DNA of 64,000 nucleotides, from positions 137,674 to 201,673 of the forward strand of contig CALFER010000034.1 of NCBI GenBank assembly GCA_937951895.1. Direction: 5' to 3'. The translations under genes and the position numbers were made by a program. This DNA comes from an uncultured bacterium (GTDB lineage: Bacteria > CSSED10-310 > CALFER01). Shown here in pieces: positions 2,496 through 38,028 of the stretch. Below the pieces are notes generated by a model. That model saw only the letters and a program-made list of their open reading frames with translations. It searched no databases and was not told the DNA's origin. The first letter of the stretch is position 1, and each line of letters opens with the position of its first letter.

Positions 2496-2600
2496 CGTTT
2501 TCGATTCTCCTGTTGCGGTACGGATCGGCCATGAATAGGCTTCCGGATTGAACCGGGGCTATATTAGCGTCATGAAACCGGCGGCACAACGCCGAATCGA

Positions 2601-3305
2601 TCATCCCAGGCGAAAGGTTCCGGATCTCTGCCCTGGTTTGATGATCTTCTGCAGCGACATGCCTCCGATGAATCCGCCGATATGGGCCCAGAAGGCGATT
2701 CCACCGAAGGAGGACGCGCCTGCCATCAACGATGCGGTGCCGCTGAATATCTGTGACACGAACCAAACGAAGAGATACACGACGGCCGGCACTTCAAAAA
2801 ACAGCGGATAGAAGAACACCGGGATCAACACGAGAATTCGGGAGCGCGGGAAGAGAAGGAAGTATGCGCCCATGACACCCGCAATCGCACCGCTCGCCCC
2901 GATCGTCGGCACCATCGATGTCGGGTTCAGCAGCACATGAACCATCATCGCCGCGATTCCCGACAGAACGTAAAACAACAGATATCGAATATGGCCCAGT
3001 CGGTCCTCGACGTTGTCACCGAACAGATACAGACTCCACATGTTCCCGATCAGGTGCATCCAGCCCGCATGCAGAAACATCGAACTGAAAACGGTTTTCA
3101 TTCCGCCGTTGGGCAGCAACTTCCAATTCATGACGGAAAAATCGAGCAATCTGCCGGGAATCAACCCCCAGTATCCGACAAATGCCTCGATGCCCCGCGG
3201 CGGGATTCTCAACATGTTCACAAACACATACACATTCAGGAGAATCAACAGAAAATTGACGATCGGTATTCGGCGGGCGGGGATCGTGTCCCGAATCGGT
3301 ATCAT
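2601..3305 (-). CDS. Rhomboid family intramembrane serine protease
   Basis: 234 aa, polytopic. Catalytic GASGAIAG serine motif and downstream HIGGFIGG histidine motif in separate TM helices. Confidence 0.8.
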   Translation of the reverse strand: MIPIRDTIPARRIPIVNFLLILLNVYVFVNMLRIPPRGIEAFVGYWGLIPGRLLDFSVMNWKLLPNGGMKTVFSSMFLHAGWMHLIGNMWSLYLFGDNVEDRLGHIRYLLFYVLSGIAAMMVHVLLNPTSMVPTIGASGAIAGVMGAYFLLFPRSRILVLIPVFFYPLFFEVPAVVYLFVWFVSQIFSGTASLMAGASSFGGIAFWAHIGGFIGGMSLQKIIKPGQRSGTFRLG

Positions 3306-3337
3306 ACCGGAAACCTCTCAACATCCAGTCCGTCGCG

Positions 3338-5002: not shown

Positions 5003-6683
5003 GACCTGATCGAATCCAGCGATTCACCGCCCGGACATACAAACGATGCTCGACTGTCAACACTTTTGCGGCCAGAGTCCCGGCGGTGTCATCCGGTGAT
5101 ACCTCGACGATCTGCTGATCCAGTATCCGGCCGCGATCATACTCGTTATTCACCAGGTGCACGGTCGCGCCGGAATACTTCGCACCGCTCCTGATGACCG
5201 CTTCGTGGACTCGTTCACCATACATTCCAACCCCACCGAATGCAGGCAGGAGGGCCGGGTGGATGTTCAGCACGGGTATTCCGCAGACCGCGAGAAACCC
5301 GGCAGAGAGTCGCTTCATGTAGCCTGCCAGGCAGATCAGTTCAACACCGTGTTCTTTCATGATATCAAGGATGGCCTGATCGCGGGAAGATTCATCCGCA
5401 TGCGTTCGGGAGGAAAGATGATACGCCGGTATATTCTCACGCCGGGCGATGTCGAGAATACCGGCTCGGGAATTGTTCGAGATGACACAGACGATGTCGG
5501 CATCGAGTTCGTCGTTTTTGGAAGCCGTGACCAGCGCAGCCATGTTCGTGCCGCGACCGGATCCCAGAACCGCGATTTTCATTTTTCCGGTCGGCATCGC
5601 GTCGCTCCGGGTTCCCGCACCGGATCGCCGTTCCGGCGCGGTTCCTGTGGATCCCGTCTGAGCCCCCACATACCCGACTCCGGGTGAATCCGTGATCCGT
5701 CCGATTTCATACGAAACAAAACCGGATTTCTTCCAGGCATCCTGAAGGCGCGAGGCGGCGTGCGGATCCACCACCGCGATCAACCCCAGCCCCATATTGA
5801 ATGTCCGGTACATCTCGGAGTCATCGATCCGGGCTTCCTCGCGGAGGAGTTTCATCACGGGAGGAATCGGCCAGGAATCGATCAGGATCCGAGCGCCGAA
5901 ACGATCGGGGTAGGCCCGAGGCAAGTTGCCGGTGATGCCTCCACCGGTGATATGCGCGAATGATTTGACACCGGGGATACTGAGCGCGATTTGAACTTCA
6001 GGGACGTAGATCCGTGTCGGAGCGAGAAGCACATCGCCCAACGGCCTGTCTTCGCCGGGTATGGTTTGATCGAGAGGAAATCGGGCACGATCCTCGAAGG
6101 TCCGCCGGACCAGTGAGTACCCATTTGAGTGAAATCCGGTCGACGGCAACCCGATCAGGACATCTCCGGGTTCTACCCCATCGGGATTCAGGAGTCTGTC
6201 CCTGTCGACCATGCCGACAGCAAACCCCGCCAGATCATACTCACCCGCTCCATACATTCCGGGCATTTCTGCGGTTTCGCCTCCGAGCAGTGCACAGCGT
6301 GATTGCCGGCAACCCTCGACGATCCCGTCGATGACGCTCAGGTGAGTCTTCAGATCAAGTTTGCCTGTTGCGAGATAATCCAGGAAGAAGAGAGGTTTTG
6401 CGCCGCATACGATCAGGTCGTTGACATTCATGGCAACCAGATCGATTCCGATCGTATCATGCCGATCCAACTCGAAAGCCAGTTTGAGCTTGGTACCGAC
6501 ACCATCGGTACAACCGACAAGGATCGGGTCTTTCCATTCGGAGGGACCGAAATCGAACAAACCGGCGAAGGGACCGATACCGGATACGACCCCCTTCGCT
6601 TTCAACTGTTTTACGCGCGATTTGATCTGCTCGACAAAGGCATCACCCAGCGCAACATCGACACCCGCCTGTTTGTAATTCAT
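4995..6683 (-). CDS. purMN: Phosphoribosylformylglycinamidine cyclo-ligase (PurM) fused in-frame to phosphoribosylglycinamide formyltransferase (PurN)
   Basis: N-terminal 345 aa is PurM (MNYKQAGVDV..., GFHSNGYSL). A G/S/T/A-rich linker of about 28 aa (AQTGSTGTAPERRSGAGTRSDAMPTGK) follows, then a complete PurN (MKIAVLGSGRGTNMAAL..., HPSLLPAF-like NIHPALLPAFGG, folate-binding core). No in-frame stop separates the two. Confidence 0.8.
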   Translation of the reverse strand: MNYKQAGVDVALGDAFVEQIKSRVKQLKAKGVVSGIGPFAGLFDFGPSEWKDPILVGCTDGVGTKLKLAFELDRHDTIGIDLVAMNVNDLIVCGAKPLFFLDYLATGKLDLKTHLSVIDGIVEGCRQSRCALLGGETAEMPGMYGAGEYDLAGFAVGMVDRDRLLNPDGVEPGDVLIGLPSTGFHSNGYSLVRRTFEDRARFPLDQTIPGEDRPLGDVLLAPTRIYVPEVQIALSIPGVKSFAHITGGGITGNLPRAYPDRFGARILIDSWPIPPVMKLLREEARIDDSEMYRTFNMGLGLIAVVDPHAASRLQDAWKKSGFVSYEIGRITDSPGVGYVGAQTGSTGTAPERRSGAGTRSDAMPTGKMKIAVLGSGRGTNMAALVTASKNDELDADIVCVISNNSRAGILDIARRENIPAYHLSSRTHADESSRDQAILDIMKEHGVELICLAGYMKRLSAGFLAVCGIPVLNIHPALLPAFGGVGMYGERVHEAVIRSGAKYSGATVHLVNNEYDRGRILDQQIVEVSPDDTAGTLAAKVLTVEHRLYVRAVNRWIRSGRV

Positions 6684-6728
6684 TGGATGGTTCTCCAGTA
6701 TCAGGAAAAGGAATTCGCGTTCGACAGA

Positions 6729-7796
6729 CTATGTCTTCCGACCTCCGACTGCGCGCAGAAAACTGCCTCGATCGGAGATCCTGCTGAGCGTCATGTCGTA
6801 GCTGATGGTATTGGTGTTGAACAACTCCATCAATGACTGATCCATGGTCTGCATGCCGTCCTTGCGACTTCCCTGGATCAGACTGGTCAACTGATGCGTT
6901 TTACCCTCCCGGATCACGTTCGATATGGCCGAATTGCAGAACATGACCTCAACGGCCGGAACGCGTCCCTTCCCGTCTCCCGTCGGGATGAGTTGCTGGG
7001 AGATGACTCCGCGAAGCGCAACGGATAACATGACTCGGACGTGTTCCTGCTCTTCGACGGGAAACACATCGACCACCCGATCGATCGTCTTGATCGCCGA
7101 ATTCGTGTGAACGGTTGCAAATACAAGGATACCGGTTTCGGCGGCCGACAGGGTCAAACGAGTTGTTTCGAGGTCTCGCATCTCACCGACCAGAATGATG
7201 TCCGGATCCTGCCGCAACGCCGAGCGCAGTGCATCCGCAAAGCTCTCGGTGTGCATTCCGACCTCCCGCTGAGTCAGCAAACACCCGCGGCTGGTATGAA
7301 CGAACTCGATCGGATCCTCGATCGTAATGATATGTTTTTTCCCCTTCCGGTTGATCATGTCGATGAGCACAGCCAGGGTCGTGCTCTTGCCGGATCCGGT
7401 GGCGCCGGTAACCAAAACGAGACCCCGGTCGAGCTGGGAAAACTTGATGATGGATTGGGGCAGCCCGAGTTTTTCGATCGAGGTGGCATGATCCGGGATG
7501 ACGCGAAACACGGCGCTGATCCCGTTGGTCTGATGAAACATCGTGACCCGGAATCGGGACACATTGGGAATCTGATAGGCGAAATCGACTTCAAGATTGT
7601 CCAGGAACCGTTCCCGATTCGACTTGGTGAGTATCTCATAGAGGATCGTTTTACCGTCCTCGAGCGAAATGACTTCCTCCCGGAGATTGACCAGGTTGCC
7701 ATGAACACGAACCATCGGTTTGTTACCCGTGACAAAATGCAGATCGGAACCGCTTTTAAGAACAACTTCCTTTAAGAACTGATCGATGATCGCCAT
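6729..7796 (-). CDS. pilT: Type IV pilus retraction (twitching motility) ATPase PilT
   Basis: 355 aa. Walker A GATGSGKSTT, Asp box, Walker B DIILVGEMRD, His box ATVHTNSA. Full PilT-like N-terminal domain. Confidence 0.85.
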   Translation of the reverse strand: MAIIDQFLKEVVLKSGSDLHFVTGNKPMVRVHGNLVNLREEVISLEDGKTILYEILTKSNRERFLDNLEVDFAYQIPNVSRFRVTMFHQTNGISAVFRVIPDHATSIEKLGLPQSIIKFSQLDRGLVLVTGATGSGKSTTLAVLIDMINRKGKKHIITIEDPIEFVHTSRGCLLTQREVGMHTESFADALRSALRQDPDIILVGEMRDLETTRLTLSAAETGILVFATVHTNSAIKTIDRVVDVFPVEEQEHVRVMLSVALRGVISQQLIPTGDGKGRVPAVEVMFCNSAISNVIREGKTHQLTSLIQGSRKDGMQTMDQSLMELFNTNTISYDMTLSRISDRGSFLRAVGGRKT

Positions 7797-7803
7797 GGCA
7801 TCC

Positions 7804-8919
7804 TCACGGTTTCAGCTTGATCTGCGAGGTCTGGAATGTCTGCTTCGGATCTTTGCTCTGTCCCGTCAGCGTCTCCTCAAAATACTTCGGATCATGGGCA
7901 TGGACCATCGCCTCGTCCCGCTCGATCTTCCCCTCCTTGACCAGTTCCACCAGATGATCATCCATCAGTTGCATCCCCATTCCCTTGTTCATCTGCAGGA
8001 CACTCGGAAGCTGAAATGTCTTCCCTTCCCGGATCAGATTCGAGACGGATGGGGTGGCGAGCAGGATTTCACATGCCAGGACCAGTGATTTACCGGATTT
8101 GGCCTTGATGAGCTGTTGACAGATGACCCCCCGCAGAGACTCCGAAACCATGCTCCGGATCTGATTTTTCTGATTGCCGGGGAACACATCGATGATGCGG
8201 TCGATGGTTTTCGAGGCATCGAGAGTGTGGAGGGTTCCGAGCACGAGGTGTCCGGTTTCTGCGGCGGTGATCGCCATCGAGATCGTCTCGAGATCGCGCA
8301 TTTCACCGACGAGTATGATGTCGGGATCCGCCCGAAGCGCCTGACGCAAGGCGTTGGCGAACGAATGTGTATGCGTGCCGACCTCGCGCTGGTTCACCAT
8401 ACACCTCTCATTCTTGTGAATGAACTCAACCGGATCCTCAACCGTGATGACATGACGTTCCTGCGTTTTGTTGATCAGATTGATCAGAGCGGCCAGGGTC
8501 GAAGACTTGCCGCAACCCGAGGATCCTGTCACGAGGATGAGACCGTTGTTGTTCTTCACGAGATTACTGACGACTTGCGGCAATCCGAGTTCCCGCAACG
8601 TAGGAATCCGCGAAGGAATCGTATGGAAGTTGGAATCCAGACCCCGCCGGGATCGATACACGCTGACCCGGAACCGTAGTCCCGATGTCGTCGCATACGA
8701 AAACTCGATCTCATGGCGCGTGTTGACCAACCGCTCCCGTTGCTCCGCACTCAGGATTTCAAACAGCAACTCCCGAACGGTTTCGATCGTCAGGGCATCC
8801 TTCGAGATCGGGATCAGATCTCCATGCAACCGGACCAGAGGCGGAGTCCCGGTGGCGATATGGATATTCGAAGCTCCCGCCTGCACTGCCTTTTCGAGAA
8901 ATCGATCGATGACTGCCAT
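7804..8919 (-). CDS. pilU: PilT-family ATPase paralog (PilU-like) with a C-terminal extension
   Basis: 371 aa. Walker A GSSGCGKSST, DIILVGEMRD, GTLHTLDA. Sits immediately upstream of and co-oriented with pilT, with a 7-nt gap. Has a C-terminal tail of about 40 aa that pilT lacks. Confidence 0.75.
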   Translation of the reverse strand: MAVIDRFLEKAVQAGASNIHIATGTPPLVRLHGDLIPISKDALTIETVRELLFEILSAEQRERLVNTRHEIEFSYATTSGLRFRVSVYRSRRGLDSNFHTIPSRIPTLRELGLPQVVSNLVKNNNGLILVTGSSGCGKSSTLAALINLINKTQERHVITVEDPVEFIHKNERCMVNQREVGTHTHSFANALRQALRADPDIILVGEMRDLETISMAITAAETGHLVLGTLHTLDASKTIDRIIDVFPGNQKNQIRSMVSESLRGVICQQLIKAKSGKSLVLACEILLATPSVSNLIREGKTFQLPSVLQMNKGMGMQLMDDHLVELVKEGKIERDEAMVHAHDPKYFEETLTGQSKDPKQTFQTSQIKLKP

Positions 8920-8965
8920 CGTATCTCCTTGGTCGGTCGTCGCGTCCAGCCAGTTCCTTTTTTAA

Positions 8966-8975
8966 TTTATATCAG
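8966..8975 (-). promoter_or_regulatory. Putative extended -10 (TGaTATAAA) in the AT-rich region upstream of the pilU-like gene
   Basis: Minus-strand sequence ctGATATAAAtt lies about 45 nt upstream of the start codon, in the only AT-rich patch of this intergenic region. The -35 is weak. Confidence 0.3.
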
Positions 8976-9040
8976 AAATCCCATCCGATGAATAATCGTT
9001 TTTTGTCGAACGGCGATGAAACGCCGTCATATCAGGCCGA

Positions 9041-10381
9041 TCAGGCAAGCAACAGACGGGGGATCAGTACACCGGCCAATGCGTACAGGAGCATCCCCAA
9101 TGACAGAAAAAAGACCGCCTTCCGGCATGCTTCACGATATCCTCCCGGAATCCCGGCATTCCAGATCGTGCCAATCCATAAGACGATCGATGGCCAGACA
9201 GGATACAAATATCGCCCCTGCGTCAACTCGTGCCGCAACCCGAACTGCACGACCACCACACCGACAGCCACCAGGACGTTGATGCCGTGAACGATCCCGA
9301 CACCACCGGTGAACCACTCCCGTTCCCGACCGATCAGGACCACCAAACCCGGAAGAAGCGGGAGAAACATGAACAGATACAGGCAATAATACCATTCTGC
9401 AGCGGGATGCTTGAGCCAACCGAAATTCAGAATCAGGCTCGCGATAAAATGACCTCCGAAACGCGTCCACCACTCGGGATTCCATGGCGTCCCTGCAACG
9501 GTCCAATCAAGACCGCGAAACTGGGAGATGATCTGATGCGCTGTCAGACGGACCAGTCCCGGCATCAGATTGGAGACCAGGATCCAGAGCATGACGCCTG
9601 CCGAACCAAGGCACAGAGCGAACCGGTACCGACTCAGCACAGTCGCTCGGAAAGACCGGCGATACAGCACCAGTGATGCGGACAGCAGAAATCCCGGCAA
9701 AGCCAGCAACGCGGAGCGATGCGAGGCGACACCCAGTGCCACTCCCGCAAAGCCCCACAACCATCCGGAAACTCGCTCGGGTTCCACCAGCAGCCGGATA
9801 CTGCCGTAGATCGTCATGGCTGATGCCAGCCAGGCGAGATTCGCAGGATTGGCCGACCCGGACATATATAGATACTGAGGCGTCATCAGTCCGCACGCCC
9901 ACACCAACCACTCCGATGGTTCACGCTGTGTCTGCCGGCCGATCAGCAGCAGAAACATCGCCGCACCCGCAGCCAGAACGATCCCGATAGCGCGGGATGC
10001 GAGCAAAGCGGGCAAAGGCCCGTCTATCCGCAGGAACCGCAGCACCATTCCCATTCCCGCATAATACAGCGTCGGTTTGGATAGCTGGGTCGGCTTCATG
10101 CGCAGCAGTGGCGCTTCATAAAACCGGGACGGGGGCGACGCCGGCACGGGAAAATCGACCAACTGCCAGAAGCGGAACGATGCGGATGATTCGAGTATAA
10201 CGGATTCCAGATGCTCCAGCGGCAACCGTCTCTCATGCGTATTATACAGCACATATGCCAGATGGGCCGGTTCGTCAGGACACTGGAACGGCGGATTTAA
10301 AAAAAGAGCCGTCAGTGTGGCCATGCAGAACCAAACGACGGAAAACCACACGAGTGCTGATCGATTGGCCCGACCGTTCAT
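9041..10381 (-). CDS. DUF2142-like polytopic membrane protein (GT-C-like)
   Basis: Likely start is the Met at 10381 (MNGRANRSALVWF...), giving ATGA coupling with the upstream TPR gene. The annotated ORF start at 10585 would overlap that gene by about 200 nt. DEPAHLAY loop motif, more than 9 TM segments. Confidence 0.55.
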   Translation of the reverse strand: MNGRANRSALVWFSVVWFCMATLTALFLNPPFQCPDEPAHLAYVLYNTHERRLPLEHLESVILESSASFRFWQLVDFPVPASPPSRFYEAPLLRMKPTQLSKPTLYYAGMGMVLRFLRIDGPLPALLASRAIGIVLAAGAAMFLLLIGRQTQREPSEWLVWACGLMTPQYLYMSGSANPANLAWLASAMTIYGSIRLLVEPERVSGWLWGFAGVALGVASHRSALLALPGFLLSASLVLYRRSFRATVLSRYRFALCLGSAGVMLWILVSNLMPGLVRLTAHQIISQFRGLDWTVAGTPWNPEWWTRFGGHFIASLILNFGWLKHPAAEWYYCLYLFMFLPLLPGLVVLIGREREWFTGGVGIVHGINVLVAVGVVVVQFGLRHELTQGRYLYPVWPSIVLWIGTIWNAGIPGGYREACRKAVFFLSLGMLLYALAGVLIPRLLLA

Positions 10382-11352
10382 GTCCCGCAACCTTGCCACG
10401 CGTCCCGGAGATACAGAAACAGGATTTTCGAGGGCAGCCCCGGCCGCTTGCCCCCCCACGCGCACGGAGTCATCAACATCGCCTCGATCTGCTCCGTCCA
10501 CACGCCCTTGCCACCCGCAGCCGCCGCATCGAGCGCTTCGATGATCGGATGACCGGCATGTGCCATGCGCGCGGCATTCATCCAACGACTCAGCGAACCG
10601 GAATCCGATCCAGTCACAAGAACCACCCGAATCATTCTCAGAATCACCTGGATATCCCCGGGATCACAGGCTTCGGCGCGATAATACCAATCCAATGCCG
10701 TCTGCCGGTCGCCTCTTTCCCAATACGCATCCCCGATATCCACCCGGACAATTCCCAGATTCGGAGCGCGTGCGATCGCCTCCTCATAAGAATCGGTCGC
10801 GGAAACGATCTCTCCACGGGAAAGCTGGACATGGCCCATCGCCACGAATGCATCCTGACGGTCGGGATACCTCCGAGATTGCGCTACGAATTCCCTGAAT
10901 GCCGCGTCCATGCGACCGATCTTGATCATCGCAATCCCGCGATAAATGCCTCCGATGTAATCCATCCTGCTTTCCGAATCGAGCCGTTCGTATGCGTCGA
11001 GCGCTGACTGGAAATCGCCGCTGAGGAACAACCGAAGCGCAAGATTCTTCCGAAGCGCGACACTCCAGGCCGATATCTCAGTCTCCGCACCGGAACGATC
11101 CGGAACACGATCCAGCCACACGAGAGCCTCGGGATAGCGCCCCATCGAATCGTTGAACGCAGCCGCCGTGACGGGGATGGCTGAACCGGTCCAATACCGC
11201 CCCGTGAATGCCTGCTGAGCCGAGTCGATCGCCACGATCAGCGCGCCCGGCCCGGCAGCGACCAGCATCCAGAGCAGGAATCGAAGGATCGGCGTCCAGC
11301 GATTGCCGGTCATATCCGTCGGACCTCTCGGAGCAGCCGGAAGATACCCCAT
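10378..11352 (-). CDS. TPR-repeat protein with N-terminal signal/TM segment
   Basis: 324 aa. Hydrophobic N-terminus (ILRFLLWMLVAAGPGALIVA), then several TPR-like helical repeats (AxxxYxxA patterns). Confidence 0.55.
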   Translation of the reverse strand: MGYLPAAPRGPTDMTGNRWTPILRFLLWMLVAAGPGALIVAIDSAQQAFTGRYWTGSAIPVTAAAFNDSMGRYPEALVWLDRVPDRSGAETEISAWSVALRKNLALRLFLSGDFQSALDAYERLDSESRMDYIGGIYRGIAMIKIGRMDAAFREFVAQSRRYPDRQDAFVAMGHVQLSRGEIVSATDSYEEAIARAPNLGIVRVDIGDAYWERGDRQTALDWYYRAEACDPGDIQVILRMIRVVLVTGSDSGSLSRWMNAARMAHAGHPIIEALDAAAAGGKGVWTEQIEAMLMTPCAWGGKRPGLPSKILFLYLRDAWQGCGT

Positions 11353-12026
11353 GCACTGATCAGTCCGATCAGCAACACGATTCCGCGTGCCGCGCGGACT
11401 CCGATGAGGCGTGCCGGACCGCTCCGATCGAGAGCCTCCAGAATCAGGACCGGGATGGGTGTGCGCGTCCAGAGTTTCATCGCGAGCTCACCGGGAATCG
11501 CGGCGCCGTTCATCGTGAGGTTTCCCGTGTTCCCGCGCCCTTCCGAATCACGCCACAGGGTCACCTCGTTCCCCGGCATGATTCCCTCCGACACAATCCG
11601 CACGATCAGCGACCCCTCACCCGGAGGCAGAGTTCGCTCAAATCGGATCATACCCCACTGGTTGTCCTGCAGATTGGCAAGATCCACGCGCGCCATCACG
11701 GTATCAGTCGAACCGGCGTCCTGTCCCGGCCGGCTCACCTCGACCCTCAGCACGCCCGAATTGACCCGGCAGTAGGTGCCGAATCGAAGCGACACAGCGG
11801 CGACGGGATCCCAATGCTCCGAATTGAGGCGCTGCTCGATGATGGTTCGGCCCGTCAAGGGATCACACGGCCGGTCAAACGAGATCGCTTCATACTGCAC
11901 GCGCAGAGAGCCCTCGAGGTACCAGGCCGGATCCGGGGGGACAAGCGGAACGAGCGGCAGACATACCAGCAGCCACAGCCAGCGGCATGTGCCACGCGTC
12001 TCCGACAACCGCGCCGGCGCCGTCAT
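11310..12026 (-). CDS. Hypothetical exported/membrane-anchored protein
   Basis: 238 aa. N-terminal signal-like WLWLLVCLPLVPLVP, C-terminal TM helix plus basic tail. No recognisable domain. ATGA-coupled to the kinase gene stop and overlaps the downstream TPR gene. Confidence 0.4.
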   Translation of the reverse strand: MTAPARLSETRGTCRWLWLLVCLPLVPLVPPDPAWYLEGSLRVQYEAISFDRPCDPLTGRTIIEQRLNSEHWDPVAAVSLRFGTYCRVNSGVLRVEVSRPGQDAGSTDTVMARVDLANLQDNQWGMIRFERTLPPGEGSLIVRIVSEGIMPGNEVTLWRDSEGRGNTGNLTMNGAAIPGELAMKLWTRTPIPVLILEALDRSGPARLIGVRAARGIVLLIGLISAWGIFRLLREVRRI

Positions 12027-15000
12027 GACCGGCGTCCGTGACCGATCTGCATGTCATGGGCGAGCGCTCGCATTGAATCGTCTTCTCCAAGTTCGACGTA
12101 CAGCCGCATCATGTCGAAAATCAGCTTTTTTCTCAAACCGGAATTCCAAAACAGCACAATCTCGGATTCTGAGAACCCCTGCGCCTGTCCCCGAAGCGTC
12201 CGAAGCAGCGCTTCTGCCTCCACGAGCGCCTCACGGGTCCGATGGTCGCGTTCGAGTGATTCGATGCCGAGCAATCGCCAGCGTGTCAGCGGAGGTTCGA
12301 TCGGGTAAGAGAGGATCTGCGGCCCCAGACGGTCGCGCCACTCCTCGAATCGACCCGGGTCGGACAAGGACAGATACTCCAGCAGATCGAGTGCCATCGG
12401 AAAAAACAGGATCCGATTCTCCGACCCGCACACATCCGAAACCTGCGATTCGATCCGTCGGATCGCCGCGTCACAGCGCCCGTCCAAAAAATCCTGCCTC
12501 GCACACGCGCGCTCGAACTCCATTCGCACATCAGCGGTTTCAATCTGTGATGCCGAGTCAACGATGTCCGCGAGACACCGCTCAGCCGCGCCGCGGATGT
12601 CGGACCAGGACTTTCGGGCCGCCAGCAATGACCGATGGCGGAGGAGTCCGTACATCACCGAAAACCGGGGATTCTGAACGATCCGGAGTCGCTGATCGAT
12701 CCGGTCGAGGTGTTCATCCACCCGGTCCGTGAATCCCAGCTCACCCGACCAGTAAGCCAACGTGATGCGCGACGGGATTTCATAGTCCAGGGCTTCAGGT
12801 AATGAAAAGGATTCGAGGGCTTTTGCGATCAGGCCGAGACCGGTGGCATATCGTCCCTGAAGAACAGCATCCAGCCCCAGTCGCACATGATTGTCAGCGA
12901 TCAGTGACTGGTCTTCGAGATCGATTGCGAGTCGCAGGGATTCCTCGTGTTTCTGCTGCGCCGCTGCCGGGAAACCGCGCGCACGGTCCAATTCCCCCAG
13001 ATTGGATGGAAGGATTGCACAAGCTGCGGCATGATCGATCGTCTGAGCCAGTTCCAGAGCTTCCCGGTTGCAGCGTTCCGACTCCTCGAACTCGCCCGCC
13101 AGAAACAGCGCCCAGGCAAGATTGACCATTGTCTGGACGACATGCGGTTTCATCTGAGCTCTCTCGAAGATCGCCAGACACTCCCGAAAATACTCCGCCG
13201 CCTGACGTTCGTTCCCGAGCGAGATCAGGACCAGGCCGATATTCGATCGGCTCCAGACTTCAAGCTGCCTGTTCCTGAGTCTGCGAGCATGATCGAGTGC
13301 CTGCCTGTAGACATCCAGAGCGTCGGGATACCACCCGAGTTTCCAGTTCTGGACACCGAGATTGATCAGGCAGGTCGTGAGCGGCGCGTCGTGCCCGAGT
13401 TCCTTCCAGATCCGCATCGATTTCTCTGTCAATTCGATGGCGCGCGGATACTGCCCCCGGGTCTCGGCGATCACCCCGAGCTTGTTGTAGGCACGGCCTT
13501 CATTGTACCGATCCGAGATCGTGACGGCCCGTGCGAGAGCAGACTCGTAGTCCTTCTCGGCAAGCGAAGTCCGGCCGGTTTCATTGAGTGCATCTCCGCG
13601 GCGATTCAGGCAATCCAGCAACAAAGTATGATCGATCACGCCCGGACTGTCATCCTTCGATCCCTCGATGATTTCGATTGCCCGCGAGTAGGATTGAATC
13701 GCATGGCCGTTCGCATAACGTCTGATTGCAGACTCGGCCGATCGGAACAGATACGGGGGGGCTTTTACGGAGCGATCCGAGGCGGACCAGTGGAACGCGA
13801 GAGCGTCGATGTCCGGATGCTCCCCGGCGCACCCCTCGAAATACTCCGCCAGCCTCCGATGATAAACACGCCGTCTCGAAGCGGACAGCCGCCCGTACAC
13901 CACTTCCTGAACCAGCGCCTGATCGAACTCGAAGAACTCATCGTCCCGCCCGCGTCGCTCGGACAGCACCCCGGCATGAAGCAACTCATCGAGGCAGTCG
14001 AACAGTTCCTCGGTATTATCTGCTGCCACCTCCCGAAGCAACTCGTACTGGAACCGTCTCCCCGCCACCGCGGCCCACTCCAGCACCTTTTTCGTCTTGT
14101 CCCGAATGGTCTCGATCCGCTGCAGAATCATGTCATGAATGCCTTTGGGCACCACCACGCTGCCGGAAGCGATTCCGGTCGAATCGGCCGGCACGGATTG
14201 CTGATTGCCGATGTCCAGATACCATTTCCCTTTTTTCCGGAACAGCGCTTTCGTCTCGAGCAGATTGATGATGATTTCCTCGAGAAAGAACGGATTGCCC
14301 CCGGTCATCTCGTGCAGCCAGGCAGCCAGTTTCGGCATGCTCTCATCGATACCCAGCATCGATCGGAGCATGGCCGACATGGCGTCTTGATTCAGAGGCC
14401 TGAGGAGCAATCGCTGAACGGATGAGGCGTGTGCCAATTCGGACGTCAGTTCCGACAGAGGCACGTTGGTCTCACTATCGGGAACCCGGTACACACAGAC
14501 GACGCTGAGGCGGCACGGATCGCCCGTGGTCGAGGCAGTCGAGGCATTCACGATGAAGCGTAAAAGATCGATCGCGTCGGGGTCCGCCCACTGGAGATTA
14601 TCGAGCGCGAGTAGGACGGGGTGACCTTCACCGATCCGCAGAAGGATCGACCGCACTGCGTTGAACAGCCGGAGACGCTCTTCGGCGGGGCTCAGTGATT
14701 CCGGTTCGATCTCACCCGGCATCGGTCCGAGATTGGCAAACCCCGGAAACGATCTCGCGAGAACAGGCCTGTCGTCACCGAGTGACTTCGCCTGAATCTC
14801 GGGAGAACTCCTCCATAATGAAGCACTGATCGCATCCATCACATCGGAAAAAGCCCGGAACGGCAGATTTTCACCGGGGAAGCACCGGGCGAAAAAGACT
14901 TTGCAGCCCTCGAGCCTCGCTTTCTGAACAACCTCACCGATCAGCCTGCTTTTCCCGATTCCCGCTTCGCCTTCAACCAGAATCACCGGTCGAAAGGCCC

Positions 15001-15988
15001 TCGTATTCGGATCCAGTGCCGCCCGGATCTGCGCCATCTCCTCATCGCGACCGCTGAAGCCGGGATCCCAGTGGGGCTCGATCCGTTTTGCATCGGAGTC
15101 GATCGAATCGAGCATGTCCGACACGAGCGTTTCGCCGGTCAGGAAGCTCAGATACTCTTCCCAGCGCCTTTTAAGATCCTGTGCGTTGGGGAAACGCCGA
15201 TGCGGATCTTTTTCGAGCAGCCGCATGATGATCGATTCGATTTCAGGAGTGACATTCGGATTGAGAAACGACGGAGGCGCGGGCTGTTCATCGACATGCT
15301 TGAACAGGATATCCATCGGCCGGTCGCCTGAAAACGGCTTCTGTCCGGTCACGATTTCATAGAGGAGGACGCCGAGTGAATAAAGATCGGAGCGGGGATC
15401 GAGGCGTGCGCCGCGGCATTGCTCCGGCGACATGTAAGCCACCGTGCCGATAACCGCTCCGGTTTTCGTCAGCGCAACCGATGCATCGATTTCACGCGCC
15501 AGGCCGAAATCCATGATCTTGGCGTCGCCGTCCGTCGTGACCATGATGTTTGCGGGTTTGAGATCACGGTGAATGAGACTTCGGGTGTGGATGTAGTAAA
15601 GGGCCGAGCAGATCTGGGTCATGATCTTGCAGGTCTGGACCAGACGACGGGTCGCCCGGACATCGTTTTTCCGATAACTGCTCTCCCAGTCCCGCATGGA
15701 ATCCTTCAGCGTGCTGCCCTCGATGAATTCCATCGTGAAATACGGGGTTCGATCGATCATGCCATAACTGAAAACCCGAATGACATGGGGATGGTTGAGG
15801 CGCGCGATGGAGCGGAATTCCCGCTGGAAACGATACGTGCCACCGGGCGAGCGCGACAGGAGGGTTTTCAACGCAACCCGTCGGCCGGTGTCGGTTTCCT
15901 CGGCAAGATAAACCTCGCCCATCCCACCATGCCCGAGCAGGTGGAGAATTCGATATCCATCGATGAACTCCGGGAGATGCGACGCCAT
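12023..15988 (-). CDS. Ser/Thr protein kinase fused to an AAA_16/STAND-type P-loop NTPase and a long TPR array (PknK/MalT-like architecture)
   Basis: 1321 aa. Hanks kinase motifs: GxGxxG (LGHGGMGEV), VALK, HRDLKPANIM, DFGLA, YMSPE. Walker A GEAGIGKS about 60 aa after the kinase, Walker B-like VLLALDNLQWAD. The C-terminal roughly 650 aa are TPR repeats. Confidence 0.85.
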   Translation of the reverse strand: MASHLPEFIDGYRILHLLGHGGMGEVYLAEETDTGRRVALKTLLSRSPGGTYRFQREFRSIARLNHPHVIRVFSYGMIDRTPYFTMEFIEGSTLKDSMRDWESSYRKNDVRATRRLVQTCKIMTQICSALYYIHTRSLIHRDLKPANIMVTTDGDAKIMDFGLAREIDASVALTKTGAVIGTVAYMSPEQCRGARLDPRSDLYSLGVLLYEIVTGQKPFSGDRPMDILFKHVDEQPAPPSFLNPNVTPEIESIIMRLLEKDPHRRFPNAQDLKRRWEEYLSFLTGETLVSDMLDSIDSDAKRIEPHWDPGFSGRDEEMAQIRAALDPNTRAFRPVILVEGEAGIGKSRLIGEVVQKARLEGCKVFFARCFPGENLPFRAFSDVMDAISASLWRSSPEIQAKSLGDDRPVLARSFPGFANLGPMPGEIEPESLSPAEERLRLFNAVRSILLRIGEGHPVLLALDNLQWADPDAIDLLRFIVNASTASTTGDPCRLSVVCVYRVPDSETNVPLSELTSELAHASSVQRLLLRPLNQDAMSAMLRSMLGIDESMPKLAAWLHEMTGGNPFFLEEIIINLLETKALFRKKGKWYLDIGNQQSVPADSTGIASGSVVVPKGIHDMILQRIETIRDKTKKVLEWAAVAGRRFQYELLREVAADNTEELFDCLDELLHAGVLSERRGRDDEFFEFDQALVQEVVYGRLSASRRRVYHRRLAEYFEGCAGEHPDIDALAFHWSASDRSVKAPPYLFRSAESAIRRYANGHAIQSYSRAIEIIEGSKDDSPGVIDHTLLLDCLNRRGDALNETGRTSLAEKDYESALARAVTISDRYNEGRAYNKLGVIAETRGQYPRAIELTEKSMRIWKELGHDAPLTTCLINLGVQNWKLGWYPDALDVYRQALDHARRLRNRQLEVWSRSNIGLVLISLGNERQAAEYFRECLAIFERAQMKPHVVQTMVNLAWALFLAGEFEESERCNREALELAQTIDHAAACAILPSNLGELDRARGFPAAAQQKHEESLRLAIDLEDQSLIADNHVRLGLDAVLQGRYATGLGLIAKALESFSLPEALDYEIPSRITLAYWSGELGFTDRVDEHLDRIDQRLRIVQNPRFSVMYGLLRHRSLLAARKSWSDIRGAAERCLADIVDSASQIETADVRMEFERACARQDFLDGRCDAAIRRIESQVSDVCGSENRILFFPMALDLLEYLSLSDPGRFEEWRDRLGPQILSYPIEPPLTRWRLLGIESLERDHRTREALVEAEALLRTLRGQAQGFSESEIVLFWNSGLRKKLIFDMMRLYVELGEDDSMRALAHDMQIGHGRRS

Positions 15989-16006: not shown

Positions 16007-16021
16007 CCTTCGGATCGAAGG
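16007..16021 (-). terminator. Hairpin (CCTTCG-gat-CGAAGG) immediately after the protease stop codon; weak terminator candidate
   Basis: Perfect 6-bp stem with 3-nt loop, followed on the minus strand by CACUAUUCUUG. Only 18 nt separate it from the kinase gene start. Confidence 0.3.
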
Positions 16022-16022
16022 T

Positions 16023-19000
16023 TCAAGGTGCGTCGAGGCGAATCGGCTGTTCGGGTCGAGCCGGCCCTTTCGATCGGGTCGATCGGAATCGCATCCCGTA
16101 CGACACGCCGAGCAGCAGCACGGCCATGCCGGCGATCGATACAGCCGGAACGGCAACGGATTGCGCCAGCGTCTCACCGACACACTCGGCATACACCGGG
16201 CCGAGATAGCTGTAGGGCGGGGGACTCTCGATATCCGACTCATAATACCGGATCCCGATGAAGTAGGTCACACCGTTCGCGATATCATCGGGAACAGTCA
16301 ATGTGGTCATGACGGCCGGTGCGGGGACCCGTTTTTCATGCGTGTAAACACCGGATTGCGTACCCCAGACCACGACATGCCCGGAATACGCCGCCCGATC
16401 ACGCTTCTCTTCTTCCTCATCCCAGCTCACATCGATGCTGTTGATCTTACCCATGATCGCCATTCCATGAACACCCTCGATCGAACCGGACAGGGTAAAC
16501 TGACTGTTCATATCGTCCGGCAACGCCACGCCATCCTGATCGTTCATCCCGGATATCCGAATTGTCTGTGTGCCACCCGTACCGGCGAGTGACTCGTCGA
16601 TCATGATGTCGCCCGACCAGAGCGTGCCGTGAATCCAGATGCCTGCGAATACACCGATATCGTAATCAGGAACAGGGCCGAATGTCACCGACAAGGGCAT
16701 TGCCTGGTTCATCTCCTTTGAAAAAACGAGATCGACATGCAAAGGACCCATCGGAACGATGCCGGATGGCGTCAGAGTGACGGATTCCAGACACGCGGGA
16801 GCTTCAGTTGTATAATCCATCAGATAACCCGATGTATCGACCGTGACGAGTGTCGGAATGTCATAACTGTCGTAAATCAGATCCGTTGCGCCGAACGGCA
16901 GTTGTGCCGTCGTATACGGCCCCCAGTAATTCTGCATTGCCGGGAAAGACCATACGGGCGGATTGGCGGGAACATACGCATAGTAGTCGAATCCTCCCAG
17001 CGGATTCGCCCCGAAAATGTTCGATTGCTGGATGACCGGCGCTGCCGTGTAGGGCATTGCAAGTTCGTAAGCGCTGATGTTCTGAGTTCCCCCGCTTGCG
17101 TCTCCGATCGTCGTGCATCTCAGGATCGTCGGACTTCCTCCGGTCGAAGATGCCAGATCCTCGAACCGGAGATTATTCAGGCATCTGTTGAACAGACAGC
17201 GATCCACGCACGTGCTGTTCGCGCCGCTCATCTTCAATCCCATCTCGCTCGACATAAACGTGCATCGGCTGATGTACGGAGATGCTGTCGAGGCGCTGCC
17301 TTCGGACGCGCACGACACGGCGGGATTCCCGTTCTCGAAACGACACCATTCCAAAATGGATCCCCCAAGGAAGATTCCGTCGGGCGGCATCGAGGAATAG
17401 ACCGCCGAGACACTGCCCGGCATGAAACGGATTCCATCCCATATGGCATCCTCCGCACCTTCGAAGATAACGAGATCTCCCGGAGCACCAACGGCCGACA
17501 ACTCACCGAACACACTCAAACCGGTTCCGGTCTGAAACATGATCCGCACACCGGGCTCGACCATCAGCGCAGTTGCCGGCGCAACGACGATCGGGGAGAT
17601 GACCTGGTAATGCCGGGCCGGAACGACAGCTCCCGGCCCCAGGATACCATAAACACCTCCACTCAATTCTCGCGGTCCGAGCGTGACCCGAAGCTCACTG
17701 GATTGCATCGCTCCGCTGGCCGGCTGGATAACTACCGTCAGCAGATATGTTTCACCGTACACCGCATCATCATCCGCATCGATCCGGAACGATACCGGCA
17801 CATTCTGGCCAAAACCGATATGTCCGGCCAGTTGCGGATTGTTCGTCACGATCAGATCCGGATGGGTCGACAGAAGTGTCACGATGACCGATTCCGCGTC
17901 GGCCCATTCGTTCCGGATTGAAAATGTGAAATCATAGATGTCACCCGGGTCGAACCGACCATCCGAGTCCATGTCGAAAAACGGTGTCACCTCCGGAACG
18001 GACGCGATGAGATCGGGTTGAGGCACCGCTGTGAGCGCTGCGCCGAGATCGATCGATTTTCGTGAATTGCCTTCCGGATCGGTAAAAACGGATGCGGTAT
18101 GGATGAGGTGGGCCGCGATAAACCCGGCGGTCCAGGTCGGATCGCCCAGATGATACGAGCGCAGGAGCGCTGCACCGGCACTCGCGTGCGGACAGGCCAT
18201 CGACGTCCCGCTGGAACCCGCATACGGATTCCGTAATCCGTTCTCCATCCAGGTGCTCTGGAATACACTGACACCCGGAGCGAACAGGTCGATTTCGAGA
18301 CCATGGTTGCTGAAATCCGCGATCGTTCCGGAGCATGTCAATGCGCCTACCGAGAGCACCTCCGCGTACGCGGCGGGATATTTTACCTCATTCTGAGCAT
18401 CGTTCCCCGCAGCACCGACCACGTTGATTCCCGCGGTCGATGCCGCATCGATCGCCGCCCAGAGAGCCGGATCATGATTCGACGCCGTAAACGAGCAATT
18501 GATGACCGACGCGCCCTGCTGCACGGCATATGCGATTCCCGCGACAGCCGATGCGATCGAGCCGGTCAGGTGATCATCCAGAATCTTGATCGACATCACG
18601 GGGCAGTTCCAGGCGATACCCGCGACACCGACAGCATCGTTACCGCGGGCCGCGATCACGCCCGCCACCTGAGTTCCATGACCGTTGTCATCCGATGGAT
18701 CGGCATCCGAGTTGACGAAATCCCATCCGTACAGATCGTCGACGAACCCATTGCTGTCATCATCCAGGCCGTTGAACACTTCCAGCGGGTTGCTCCAGAG
18801 CTGCGACCACAGGTCGGGATGGTCGATGTCGATTCCGCTGTCGAGGATGGCCACGGAGACCGATGCGTGCCCCGTCGAGACGTTCCAGGCGGTTTCGGCG
18901 CCGATATCGTGTACGCCTGAAGGGAAAAATGCGGCAGATCCGTGCCCGAGCGAGTATTGAAGGCCCTGTAAGTAGTAAGTGTCATCCGGAATCAGCGCCC

Positions 19001-19295
19001 CGTGAATCCGGTAGTTCGGCTCCGCGAACAGAGCCGGGTTCGCTTGCATCAGTTTCCCGGCCGACGCACGCGGATCGGCCAGATCCGACAAACGTACACG
19101 CCACCAGACGGATCCAGCGTGCGACAGCAGGACTTCCGCAGTCTGAATCGGTCCGACCGCGCCGGCCATCGCCGTCTCGATCGCCAGCCTCTCCGGCAAC
19201 CGGACGATCAGTTCGTTCTCGACCCAGTCGTCGTTTCCCGCATGCGCGCAGACCGACGCCAGAAGGAGAATCCCCCAGAAAGATGTTGTTTTCAT
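16023..19295 (-). CDS. Subtilisin-like (S8) serine protease, about 1090 aa, with beta-helix-like C-terminal region and C-terminal TM/basic tail
   Basis: GGAGGA RBS 4 nt upstream of the ATG at 19295 (MKTTSFWGILLLASVCAHA signal peptide). Catalytic triad motifs DSGIDIDHPDL, HGTQVAGVIAA and GTSMACPHASGAAALL. Cys-rich parallel beta-helix-like repeats (CTFMSSEMGLKMSGANSTCVDRCLFNRC). The protein ends in AVPAVSIAGMAVLLLGVSYGMRFRSTRSKG. Confidence 0.85.
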   Translation of the reverse strand: MKTTSFWGILLLASVCAHAGNDDWVENELIVRLPERLAIETAMAGAVGPIQTAEVLLSHAGSVWWRVRLSDLADPRASAGKLMQANPALFAEPNYRIHGALIPDDTYYLQGLQYSLGHGSAAFFPSGVHDIGAETAWNVSTGHASVSVAILDSGIDIDHPDLWSQLWSNPLEVFNGLDDDSNGFVDDLYGWDFVNSDADPSDDNGHGTQVAGVIAARGNDAVGVAGIAWNCPVMSIKILDDHLTGSIASAVAGIAYAVQQGASVINCSFTASNHDPALWAAIDAASTAGINVVGAAGNDAQNEVKYPAAYAEVLSVGALTCSGTIADFSNHGLEIDLFAPGVSVFQSTWMENGLRNPYAGSSGTSMACPHASAGAALLRSYHLGDPTWTAGFIAAHLIHTASVFTDPEGNSRKSIDLGAALTAVPQPDLIASVPEVTPFFDMDSDGRFDPGDIYDFTFSIRNEWADAESVIVTLLSTHPDLIVTNNPQLAGHIGFGQNVPVSFRIDADDDAVYGETYLLTVVIQPASGAMQSSELRVTLGPRELSGGVYGILGPGAVVPARHYQVISPIVVAPATALMVEPGVRIMFQTGTGLSVFGELSAVGAPGDLVIFEGAEDAIWDGIRFMPGSVSAVYSSMPPDGIFLGGSILEWCRFENGNPAVSCASEGSASTASPYISRCTFMSSEMGLKMSGANSTCVDRCLFNRCLNNLRFEDLASSTGGSPTILRCTTIGDASGGTQNISAYELAMPYTAAPVIQQSNIFGANPLGGFDYYAYVPANPPVWSFPAMQNYWGPYTTAQLPFGATDLIYDSYDIPTLVTVDTSGYLMDYTTEAPACLESVTLTPSGIVPMGPLHVDLVFSKEMNQAMPLSVTFGPVPDYDIGVFAGIWIHGTLWSGDIMIDESLAGTGGTQTIRISGMNDQDGVALPDDMNSQFTLSGSIEGVHGMAIMGKINSIDVSWDEEEEKRDRAAYSGHVVVWGTQSGVYTHEKRVPAPAVMTTLTVPDDIANGVTYFIGIRYYESDIESPPPYSYLGPVYAECVGETLAQSVAVPAVSIAGMAVLLLGVSYGMRFRSTRSKGPARPEQPIRLDAP

Positions 19296-19414
19296 TCCAA
19301 TCCTCCTAAAATGCGTCTCCGGTACGATACCGGAGCAACTATCAAATAACGTCATCGGCTGCTTTTAGTTAATTGTGCGTGGCGGTGAATGTCAAATCGC
19401 GCAGTGAGTTCTCA

Positions 19415-19443
19415 TTGACTAAACCGGGTGTCCCGGTTAACGT
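19415..19443 (+). promoter_or_regulatory. Candidate sigma70-type promoter (TTGACT-N17-TAACGT) whose spacer is a perfect palindrome (AACCGGG-tgt-CCCGGTT)
   Basis: TTGACT at 19415-19420, TAACGT at 19438-19443. Inverted repeat 19422-19438 fills the spacer. A GAGGGG RBS and the ATG at 19464 follow. Confidence 0.35.
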
Positions 19444-20624
19444 ACACCGAGGGGTTGTCAGTCATGCGAATTGCGTTCGACATCCGCAAATATGATGATT
19501 TCGGCATCGGAACCTACATTCGGAATGTCATGCGCGGAATACCATCATATCCCGATCGATTCACCTGGACCGTGTTGAACGGACCGGGAACTCCCCCAGA
19601 TGGTTTCGACTCACCATCCGATCGTCTCGAATTCGATGTGTTGCGGGCACACCGTCGGACTCCTTTCCAGGGTCGCCTCACGCTTCGCCGTCCAGTCGAT
19701 CTGTTTTTCGCCCCTCACTATGTGACCCCGGATCCCGGACCGACCCGATTCCTCCTCACCGTTCATGACCTGATTCATCTCGACCCTCCTGTGCTGCCCG
19801 GAGGGATCCCCGCCGTTGGAACCCGGTTCGACCGACTGAGCGAGACACTGAAGCGCTGCTATCACCGATTGCTCGCACGAACCAAACTGGTCTCGCTGAT
19901 CGACACCGCAGAACGGGTCATCACAGTTTCGCAATCCACCGCCGATCATCTCGAACTGCTTCTCCCCGGAACCGCATCGAAGGTCACCGTGATTCCGAAC
20001 TGTGTGGACGCGGTGTTTTTCACGCAGCCATCACCGGACGCGCATGCGGGTTTTCGAGAACGGCATGGCGCGATCGACCGGCCCTATTTCGTGTACTGCG
20101 GCAACGATCTGTATCACAAGAATCTCGGATACTTGCTCGCCGTCTGGAAACACATCGTATCGACACACACCTCTCCCCCACTGCTCATTCTGGCAGGGTC
20201 TCCACGGCCTCACGCAATCCTTTCGCTGGCGGATCAACTCGGGATCGCGCCTCACGTCCGCATGGCCAGTTGGATGACGATGTCGGACATTCACCTCTTC
20301 ATGACTGGATCGGAAGGGCTGATCATGCCGTCGCTGGCCGAGGGGTTCGGATTGCCGGTCGCCGAAGCAATGGCGTGCGGCACACCGGTTGCCTGTTCGG
20401 ACATTCGCCCGCATCGGGAAATCACCGGGGGCCATGCGCTGTTTTTCAACCCGCAGGATCTCGAATCCGGAAAAATCGCACTGACACGGTTTATCGATGA
20501 CGAGACCTGCCGGAGGTCGACCGTCGAGTCGGCGCGTGCCACGGCGCAATCCTACCATCCTTCCCTGTTTATCCAAAGGATGACGGATCTTCTGAACGCT
20601 CTGGATGAGGAGCGCTCTGCGTGA
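19428..20624 (+). CDS. Glycosyltransferase family 4 (GT-B fold)
   Basis: Starts MRIAFDIRKY... if the Met at 19464 is used. C-terminal EGFGLPVAEAMACGTPV motif of the GT4 family (E-x7-E). Start codon ambiguous between 19428 and 19464. Confidence 0.75.
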   Translation: MSRLTYTEGLSVMRIAFDIRKYDDFGIGTYIRNVMRGIPSYPDRFTWTVLNGPGTPPDGFDSPSDRLEFDVLRAHRRTPFQGRLTLRRPVDLFFAPHYVTPDPGPTRFLLTVHDLIHLDPPVLPGGIPAVGTRFDRLSETLKRCYHRLLARTKLVSLIDTAERVITVSQSTADHLELLLPGTASKVTVIPNCVDAVFFTQPSPDAHAGFRERHGAIDRPYFVYCGNDLYHKNLGYLLAVWKHIVSTHTSPPLLILAGSPRPHAILSLADQLGIAPHVRMASWMTMSDIHLFMTGSEGLIMPSLAEGFGLPVAEAMACGTPVACSDIRPHREITGGHALFFNPQDLESGKIALTRFIDDETCRRSTVESARATAQSYHPSLFIQRMTDLLNALDEERSA

Positions 20625-36973: not shown

Positions 36974-37001
36974 ACGATCTCTGAACCGGCGTCCGGTCCG
37001 A

Positions 37002-37991: not shown

Positions 37992-38028
37992 ATACACCCT
38001 CCGAAATGAATCTCGCGAATCGGCGGAG

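Follow-up and report, generated by a model that had tools for sequence, protein, structure and literature searches.

In the literature on Lactococcus and Streptococcus, DUF2142 proteins are treated as enzymes of the GT-C fold whose substrates, outside the membrane, are oligosaccharides linked to undecaprenyl phosphate; WpsI is a putative pellicle polymerase, WpsJ is a putative transferase to rhamnan, and WpsH, in which two transmembrane (TM) helices surround a large extracellular loop, is a putative co-polymerase or chain-length regulator (PMC9574508, PMC10821137, PMC12599335). DUF2142 genes have also been described in the rgp loci of S. thermophilus (PMC9746298). In this report, a locus with a DUF2142 gene from an uncultured bacterium (contig CALFER010000034.1 of assembly GCA_937951895.1) is compared with these systems. 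The stretch of DNA that was analysed, which will be called the window, is 64,000 nucleotides (nt) long, and the locus comprises three genes encoding membrane proteins, referred to as the trio, as well as the gene for a large kinase that precedes them. The trio encodes a protein of 238 amino acids (aa), a tetratricopeptide repeat (TPR) protein and the DUF2142 protein. We consider it probable, with some reserve, that these four genes are two separable units joined only in this lineage, namely a membrane trio that builds or attaches a surface glycan and a PknK-like sensor kinase.

Five co-oriented minus-strand genes lie between 9041 and 19355, as determined from the list of open reading frames (ORFs) and their translations. 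Positions are coordinates of the window, and Pfam, NCBIfam and PADLOC were used for the domain scans.

16023-19295, minus strand: S8 subtilase gene, 1090 aa (longest ORF 16023-19355)
12023-15988, minus strand: kinase-AAA_16-TPR gene, 1321 aa
11310-12026, minus strand: gene for the 238-aa membrane protein, first of the trio (ORF)
10378-11313, minus strand: TPR gene, second of the trio, 311 aa with a revised start (longest ORF 10378-11352)
9041-10381, minus strand: DUF2142 gene, third of the trio, 446 aa, identical to database protein P0131 (longest ORF 9041-10585)

An earlier note on this DNA had described four minus-strand genes with overlapping stop and start codons, and the ATGA overlaps that it placed at 12023-12026 and 10378-10381 are both real. 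The junction sequence holds a third one at 11310-11313. The note had also reported that the 238-aa gene overlaps the TPR gene; the overlap stands, and with the revised TPR start it would be a 4-nt ATGA. The ATG at 11313 is most likely the true start of the TPR gene and the start at 11352 is probably too long, because the third ATGA overlap, the gene calls in identical and related contigs and the orthologue alignment agree. The overlaps of 1-4 nt suggest that, in the window's clade, all four genes are probably transcribed together and coupled in translation. The domain calls of the note (Pkinase, AAA_16, TPR, DUF2142 and S8 peptidase) were all borne out by Pfam.

The arrangement in relatives argues that the kinase and the trio are separable. 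The full order S8-kinase-238-TPR-DUF2142-pilT-pilT-purMN is kept in close relatives with kinase-trio overlaps of 1-4 nt, and an ATGA or a 1-nt overlap joins the kinase to the trio in the window and at loci L003 and L008. The kinase of these relatives is 58% identical to that of the window, and the identity of the 238-aa protein is 59% or 34%. Because the neighbourhood as a whole is collinear there, the shared order of kinase and trio says little. The more distant protein P0006 (locus L006) is the positional orthologue of the kinase, with 38% identity over 99% of its length, and it lies in the same context as in the window, before pilT-pilT-purMN, a GT-C-like protein, a rhomboid protease and argS. 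The three trio partners are absent beside P0006, which is followed by an 85-aa ORF and preceded by a 740-aa Wzy_C+TPR protein and a 1431-aa beta-helix protein. Distant homologues of the DUF2142 protein (34% identity) were found in two places only, L090 and L091. L090 is another contig of the metagenome-assembled genome (MAG) that encodes P0006 (GCA_964512995.1) and carries genes for 236-aa, 307-aa TPR and 447-aa DUF2142 proteins; at L091, in a third MAG, genes for 229-aa, 299-aa TPR and 446-aa proteins follow a divergent BMC/DeoC block. No kinase is found in the 8-10 kb visible upstream of the trio at L090 and L091. The MAGs of this comparison are GCA_964472395.1, GCA_964512995.1 and GCA_053939005.1. 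The earlier note had read the four genes as one module; because a kinase orthologue occurs without the trio and a trio without the kinase in the same MAG, and a third genome has the trio without a kinase, that model is not upheld. A kinase orthologue without these neighbours was among the findings that the note itself had named as weakening its operon model.

Hidden Markov models (HMMs) of the trio proteins, built from the orthologue alignments and run over all ORFs of every fetched locus, gave the same picture from the side of the kinase. No trio component lies within 7-10 kb in 80 other kinase loci, mostly of kinase-domain-only relatives, or at the three loci of full-length kinase relatives with ~30% identity. 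The trio itself has the same order, with genes overlapping or near-adjacent, in five lineages whose similarity falls step by step (the window, L003/L004, L008/L009, L090 and L091), and the homology of all three proteins across these loci was confirmed by alignments and local HMMs. Among the loci compared, the four-gene order is confined to relatives with at least 58% kinase identity and is thus a local arrangement and no universal system. That genes overlap closely with a signalling gene in a single clade is not enough to call them a module.

Two of these loci hold further genes. At L006, positions 2003-9934 beside the 38% kinase orthologue encode the 740-aa Wzy_C+TPR protein, which is a single-polypeptide analogue of a membrane glycan enzyme with TPRs, the 1431-aa Beta_helix protein and a 287-aa protein with COLFI and fibrinogen-C matches, which are eukaryote-type. 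At L090, a B12-binding radical SAM gene (6858-8327) precedes the trio at a distance of 50 nt and in the same orientation, after a gene for a 1406-aa CLIPPER-domain protein; the radical SAM gene may be tied to glycan modification.

The small gene of the trio encodes a real protein. It is conserved with 74%, 59% and ~33% identity, and the possibility that its ORF is spurious was ruled out by this conservation and by a ratio of nonsynonymous to synonymous substitution rates (dN/dS) of 0.36. That value was obtained against L003 at dS ~0.75, along with 0.19 for the TPR gene, 0.17 for the DUF2142 gene and 0.018 for pilT. All three trio genes are under purifying selection, and the 238-aa gene evolves faster than its neighbours. 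The second ground for doubt named in the note, a 238-aa ORF lacking codon-level conservation, does not apply. The earlier note had found no recognisable domain in this protein, and no Pfam, NCBIfam or PADLOC model matches it. A word-indexed search, which gave three clusters, made it look like an orphan. This was overturned by an exhaustive profile search of 1.84 billion representatives, in which 179 representatives matched at E<=1e-3, 11 of them at E<=1e-10. Judged by these matches, the family spans Firmicutes to uncultured lineages, with Paenibacillus and Clostridium algidicarnis among its cultivable carriers, and neither Pfam nor NCBIfam has a model for it. The named members are all annotated as 'hypothetical protein' or 'uncharacterized membrane protein'. 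A profile scan of metagenome contigs with the 238-aa alignment returned only one JGI contig, which was already known. One of 36 family members weakly matches DUF6212 (Pfam, 3.6e-6), a hint of a distant relation to an existing DUF.

The matches listed other than P0003 number 149, with 74 of at most 260 aa and 62 of more than 400 aa. The short members consist of an N-terminal hydrophobic helix, a domain of ~140 residues that bears the motifs and a C-terminal TM helix, and the motifs FGTYxR, DNxW, PxNxxTxW and GxLA are kept across the trio loci in the alignment of the 238-aa protein. The topology given in the earlier note, with a hydrophobic helix at the N-terminus and a TM segment at the C-terminus, was upheld. 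AlphaFold2 (AF2) with a 36-sequence alignment predicts two TM helices flanking a beta-sandwich that resembles a carbohydrate-binding module (CBM), with a predicted local distance difference test score (pLDDT) of 89; this run was taken instead of one with a 3-sequence alignment, which was unusable (pLDDT 47). Foldseek agrees weakly. The protein does have, contrary to the note, a recognisable family and a predicted fold, and one conserved face of it bears Q65, T84/R87, D121-N122-W124 and N153/T156/W158. No significant match of the family profile was found among PDB sequences. Arg residues are found before the first and after the last helix, which fits an in-out-in topology in which the sandwich would lie outside.

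The long members are fusion proteins. The 61 long members scanned include 19 fusions to DUF2142, with the domain N-terminal to DUF2142 in P0144 and P0161, as well as fusions to PMT_2 (three), GT4 (three), the ABC-2 membrane domain (three), YfhO (one), GT2 (one) and Acyl_transf_3 (one). In Lacrimispora, the gene for a 231-aa member overlaps by 17 nt the gene for a 481-aa protein that aligns with DUF2142 proteins, and the pair lies inside a cluster encoding RgpF, Glyco_transf_99, CTP_transf_3 and GT2 proteins. Gene fusions, conserved adjacency and the predicted CBM-like fold together support the view that the 238-aa and DUF2142 proteins are physical and functional partners.

The other two proteins of the trio are conserved with it. 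The TPR protein matches several Pfam TPR families and is membrane-anchored, as the earlier note had proposed, by one N-terminal TM segment (residues 9-27). Its orthologues at the same trio position are 73, 40, 31 and 29% identical and share 37 invariant columns. From the N-terminal charges and the single TM segment, we infer that the TPRs lie outside the membrane. The assignment of the third protein in the note as a GT-C-like DUF2142 membrane protein is confirmed by a match to PF09913 with 39.2 bits against a gathering score of 30.1 (E=5e-10), and the same model is carried by the homologues P0131-P0134. The protein has at least six strong hydrophobic segments. Alignment across the loci determined that D36-E37-x-x-H40, after TM1, and G389-R-Y-L392, near the C-terminus, are invariant; the DE..H loop is predicted to be external.

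Among described systems, the Lactococcus proteins WpsH and WpsI are the nearest analogue of the trio. The likeness consists of a gene for a DUF2142 GT-C protein beside a small two-TM protein with a large extracytoplasmic domain, and it is a likeness of layout and predicted topology. By AF2 topology and synteny, the two-TM protein adjoins the DUF2142 gene in the five lineages and in Lacrimispora, and fusions are found too. The trio differs in having an additional membrane-anchored TPR protein, and no Wzx-containing cwps-type cluster was found around it among the window ORFs scanned. The host is also different, an uncultured lineage versus a Firmicute. A Firmicute member of the 238-aa family directly precedes a DUF2142-like gene in the cluster with the RgpF homologue.

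The trio can also be compared with other membrane glycan systems. In Wzy/Wzz, a polytopic polymerase is likewise paired with a bitopic partner that has two TM helices and modulates the product through its periplasmic domain. The periplasmic domain of Wzz is alpha-helical, whereas that of the 238-aa protein is predicted by AF2 to be an all-beta jelly roll, and DUF2142 differs from Wzy_C. The 238-aa protein, which has no Pfam match at all, does not match Wzz, and neither does any of the 36 family members. Mycobacterial GT-C arabinosyltransferases (EmbA/B/C and AftD) have CBM-like domains in the periplasm, and GT-C is joined to TPR or MIR domains in TMTC/PMT enzymes. These systems resemble the trio in placing a GT-C enzyme together with a beta-sandwich and/or TPRs on the non-cytoplasmic side, and fused versions of the 238-aa domain exist; the trio differs in that it is made of three separate polypeptides. 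No sequence similarity of the 238-aa family to the Emb or AftD CBMs was detected when the profile was compared with PDB sequences. By its domains and gene order the trio is a conserved, uncharacterised variant of the GT-C polymerase/co-polymerase theme.

We propose that the trio most likely acts at the outer face of the cytoplasmic membrane as an extracytoplasmic glycan polymerase or transferase complex. The DUF2142 protein, as a GT-C-type enzyme, would use a sugar or oligosaccharide linked to polyprenyl phosphate, either for polymerisation or for transfer to an acceptor, and its invariant Asp-Glu..His motif would lie in the first external loop. The 238-aa protein would have its two helices in the membrane and its CBM-like sandwich on the outer face, and it may be a glycan-binding, acceptor-positioning or chain-length subunit. 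The membrane-anchored TPR protein would serve as a scaffold. The soluble kinase-NTPase-TPR sensor, whose NTPase is of the STAND type (signal transduction ATPases with numerous domains), is found at this site of the chromosome across the wider lineage, and any regulation of the trio by it would be an addition of the window's clade. The lipid-linked donor may come from a divergent set of genes:

19428-23208, plus strand: GT4-GT4-Bac_transf (polyprenyl-phosphate sugar transferase), identified by Pfam, divergent, also present in L008 and L009

This set lies 3.4 kb upstream, on the opposite strand.

Several points weigh against this proposal. The fold matches of the 238-aa domain are generic jelly rolls with 4-16% identity, and the top ones are phage baseplate and capsid proteins, not CBMs. 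The role proposed for its family is a predicted one, and every named member is called a hypothetical protein. Even for Lactococcus WpsH and WpsI, the roles come from gene inactivation and bioinformatics. The window ORFs scanned, which did not include every small ORF, yielded no Wzx-type flippase, so that the link from GT4-GT4-Bac_transf to the trio as a donor source is weak. The ATGA coupling of kinase and trio is tightly kept in the clade with 58-59% identity, which could mean a real functional link. Additionally, few independent contexts of the trio have been sampled.

The value of the locus lies in the small 238-aa gene, which is linked by fusions and neighbourhoods to GT-C glycosyltransferases, DUF2142 among them. 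Enzymes with DUF2142 are proposed polymerases or transferases of rhamnose-rich cell-wall polysaccharides, which are phage receptors in lactococci and streptococci, and their partner proteins are known only from predictions. Two helices and a CBM-like sandwich would give a concrete partner domain for questions of acceptor choice or chain length. A bolder form of the proposal, which we hold only tentatively and regard as doubtful, is that the 238-aa protein represents a widespread, undescribed class of accessory subunits for GT-C enzymes (DUF2142, PMT_2 and YfhO). Such subunits would bind glycan and set chain length or acceptor choice as a co-polymerase structurally unrelated to Wzz, and translational coupling would wire the trio to the STAND kinase, placing it under nucleotide-switch and phosphorylation control.

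The kinase itself is considered next to the readings that depend on it. Its domains are as follows.

15167-15955, minus strand: Hanks kinase domain, residues 12-274 (Pkinase match)
14540-15058, minus strand: AAA_16 P-loop NTPase module, residues 311-483, with Walker A GEAGIGKS and Walker B LLALD
12869-13651, minus strand: TPR array, approximately residues 780-1040, beyond which the C-terminal region is helical and less conserved

The Pfam matches are Pkinase at E=1.1e-52, AAA_16 at E=3.7e-22 and TPR_12 in four stretches at E=2.1e-35, as well as TPR_1, TPR_2, TPR_10 and a weak TPR_MalT match. The kinase motifs are complete: GxGxxG (GHGGMG), VALK with K41, E57, HRDLKPAN (D142, N147), DFG160-162 and SPE. 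These motifs and both Walker motifs (NTPase columns G340-S347 and D463) are invariant in the 58% and 38% orthologues, in agreement with the earlier note, which had described complete Hanks catalytic motifs, a Walker A/B NTPase and TPRs. The activation loop, LTKTGAVIGT, has Thr residues at what we take to be the position of the PknB-type phospho-acceptor threonines. A hydrophobicity scan found no hydrophobic segment in the 1321-aa protein, which is therefore predicted to be cytoplasmic. Solved structures similar to it cover the kinase domain only, the best being PknB (2e-60).

A protein search with the kinase scored only the 8000 candidates that share most words with it, and 7987 of these reached E<=1e-20. 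The kinase + AAA_16 layout occurs in ~70 of the 120 best-listed matches, usually with TPRs and a length of 1150-1350 aa; the rest match in the kinase domain only. By this search the Pkinase-AAA_16-TPR layout is very common, being present in thousands of proteins, and the kinase itself is ordinary. Among the genome-contig matches listed in a profile scan with the kinase alignment, full-length (>650-residue) relatives have at most 30% identity, matches of 34% and 38% that span more than 900 residues are found in the same list, and the remaining matches cover only the kinase domain. The protein resembles M. tuberculosis PknK in its N-terminal Hanks kinase, AAA_16 P-loop NTPase and TPRs, a likeness of layout only. 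It differs from PknK/MalT-like STAND kinases in that the kinase is its sole output domain, with no domain for DNA binding. The NCBIfam model TIGR03903, a TOMM kinase/cyclase fusion, aligns with the AAA_16 and TPR part at 4e-89, but the score of 299.8 bits is below the cut-off of 705.75, and no Guanylate_cyc match was found by Pfam in the 1321-aa protein.

At L094, L095 and L096, the loci of the CSSED10-310-like kinase relatives with ~30% identity, the kinase is flanked in all three cases by gpsA-spoVG-pmbA and, at its other end, by GT4-GT4-Asd-DUF6600. Between the kinase and the GT4 genes there is a Beta_helix protein in L094, an unannotated 649-aa protein in L095 and nothing in L096.

The earlier note had suggested a signalling system that controls envelope glycosylation. 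The link of the trio to glycan assembly is probable, and the kinase control is possible in the window's lineage and, on the whole, unlikely. In its full form this explanation would make the four genes a dedicated system: the STAND kinase, with its TPRs and NTPase as the sensing part, would detect a cue and phosphorylate cytoplasmic loops or tails of the trio, switching envelope glycosylation on or off. The short kinase-trio overlaps in the window, L003 and L008 speak for it, and translational coupling in this clade would likely lead to co-expression of the kinase and the trio. BY-kinases (bacterial tyrosine kinases) such as Wzc are a precedent for the control of polysaccharide polymerisation by phosphorylation. 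Relatives of the kinase lie near glycan genes in three lineages, with GT4-GT4-Bac_transf in the window, Wzy_C+TPR and Beta_helix in L006, and GT4-GT4 in L094-L096. However, the GT4 genes near the distant relatives are only 23-29% identical to the pair in the window, which is family-level similarity, and a conserved kinase-GT4 unit was rejected on these grounds. The separate occurrence of kinase and trio within one MAG, the further trio locus without a kinase, and the lack of trio components at the 80 other kinase loci and the three loci of ~30% relatives all count against kinase control. Additionally, the functional domains of the trio are predicted to be extracytoplasmic, whereas the kinase is soluble.

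Alternatively, the trio could be a PMT/TMTC-like machine for protein O-glycosylation that modifies exported proteins, for example the S8 protease or pilins, and does not build a polysaccharide. The beta-sandwich is fused to PMT_2 in some family members, TPR + GT-C is the layout of TMTC, and an exported S8 protease and pilT genes flank the locus upstream and downstream. This reading is judged improbable: at L090 and L091 the trio has neither S8 nor pilT next to it, PilT, as an ATPase for retraction, is not a target of glycosylation, and most fusion partners as well as the Firmicute context are polysaccharide genes (DUF2142, GT4/WsaF, ABC-2 and RgpF).

The distant suggestion in the earlier note of an antiphage STAND sensor of the Avs type whose effector is a kinase can be set aside as having very little chance of being correct: the order of N-terminal effector, STAND NTPase and TPRs resembles Avs and the PADLOC kinase families PD-T4-6 and MAD6 match, but these matches stay within the generic kinase domain (approximately residues 4-360), neither an Avs nor a STAND model was matched, Pfam nSTAND6 reaches only 0.0028 (below the cut-off), NCBIfam MADS6 and PglW score far below their cut-offs, the core-chromosome position (pilT, purMN, argS, purF/B and dnaE) is stable in relatives down to 38% identity, and the architecture is found in thousands of proteins.

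The S8 protease was described in the earlier note as a co-oriented 1090-aa neighbour directly upstream with a small hairpin between, and both are present. The protein matches Peptidase_S8 at 2.8e-51 (Pfam), has a signal-peptide-like N-terminus, MKTTSFWGILLLASVCAHA, and ends with a TM segment at residues 1046-1064. It is present in L001, L002, L008 and L009 and absent in L006, and is thus a feature of the close clade only. The hairpin is located as follows.

16007-16021, minus strand: hairpin of 6 bp in the 34-nt spacer between the S8 stop and the kinase start

The number of terminator-like sites in the region is not above chance (11 versus 10.3 expected in shuffles), and as a terminator the hairpin is not distinguishable from chance.

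The core surroundings of the locus include purB, purF, purMN, argS, dnaE, smc, guaA, PBP2 and RodA. An AT-rich spacer of 121 nt separates the trio from the genes directly downstream, which encode tandem PilT-type T2SSE ATPases of 371 and 355 aa (6729-8919, minus strand); the first pilT, with the dN/dS of 0.018 given above, is 97% identical to that of L003. These are followed by purM and purN fused in one gene of 562 aa (4995-6683, minus strand; AIRS + AIRS_C + Formyl_trans_N), and the fusion is kept in all relatives examined (L003, L006 and L008). A second GT-C-like polytopic protein of 554 aa (3338-5002, minus strand), with a weak PMT_2 match (2.7e-5) and ~8 hydrophobic segments, is encoded between purMN and the rhomboid protease; its position is kept in L003, L006 and L008, where no Pfam match was recorded for it. 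Two ORFs, of 577 aa (27270-29003, minus strand) and 393 aa (60542-61723, plus strand), have no Pfam match at the thresholds used. A Bat aerotolerance-type operon (29500-38066, minus strand) encodes MoxR(AAA_3)-DUF58-BatD-like-BatA/VWA-VWA-TPR-BatD, followed by a TPR+SH3 protein. Further along, at 52820-54379 on the minus strand, a 519-aa protein combines FHA, GAF and adenylate/guanylate cyclase domains; FHA is a phosphothreonine reader, and this protein could be a partner that acts downstream of the Ser/Thr kinases of this genome.

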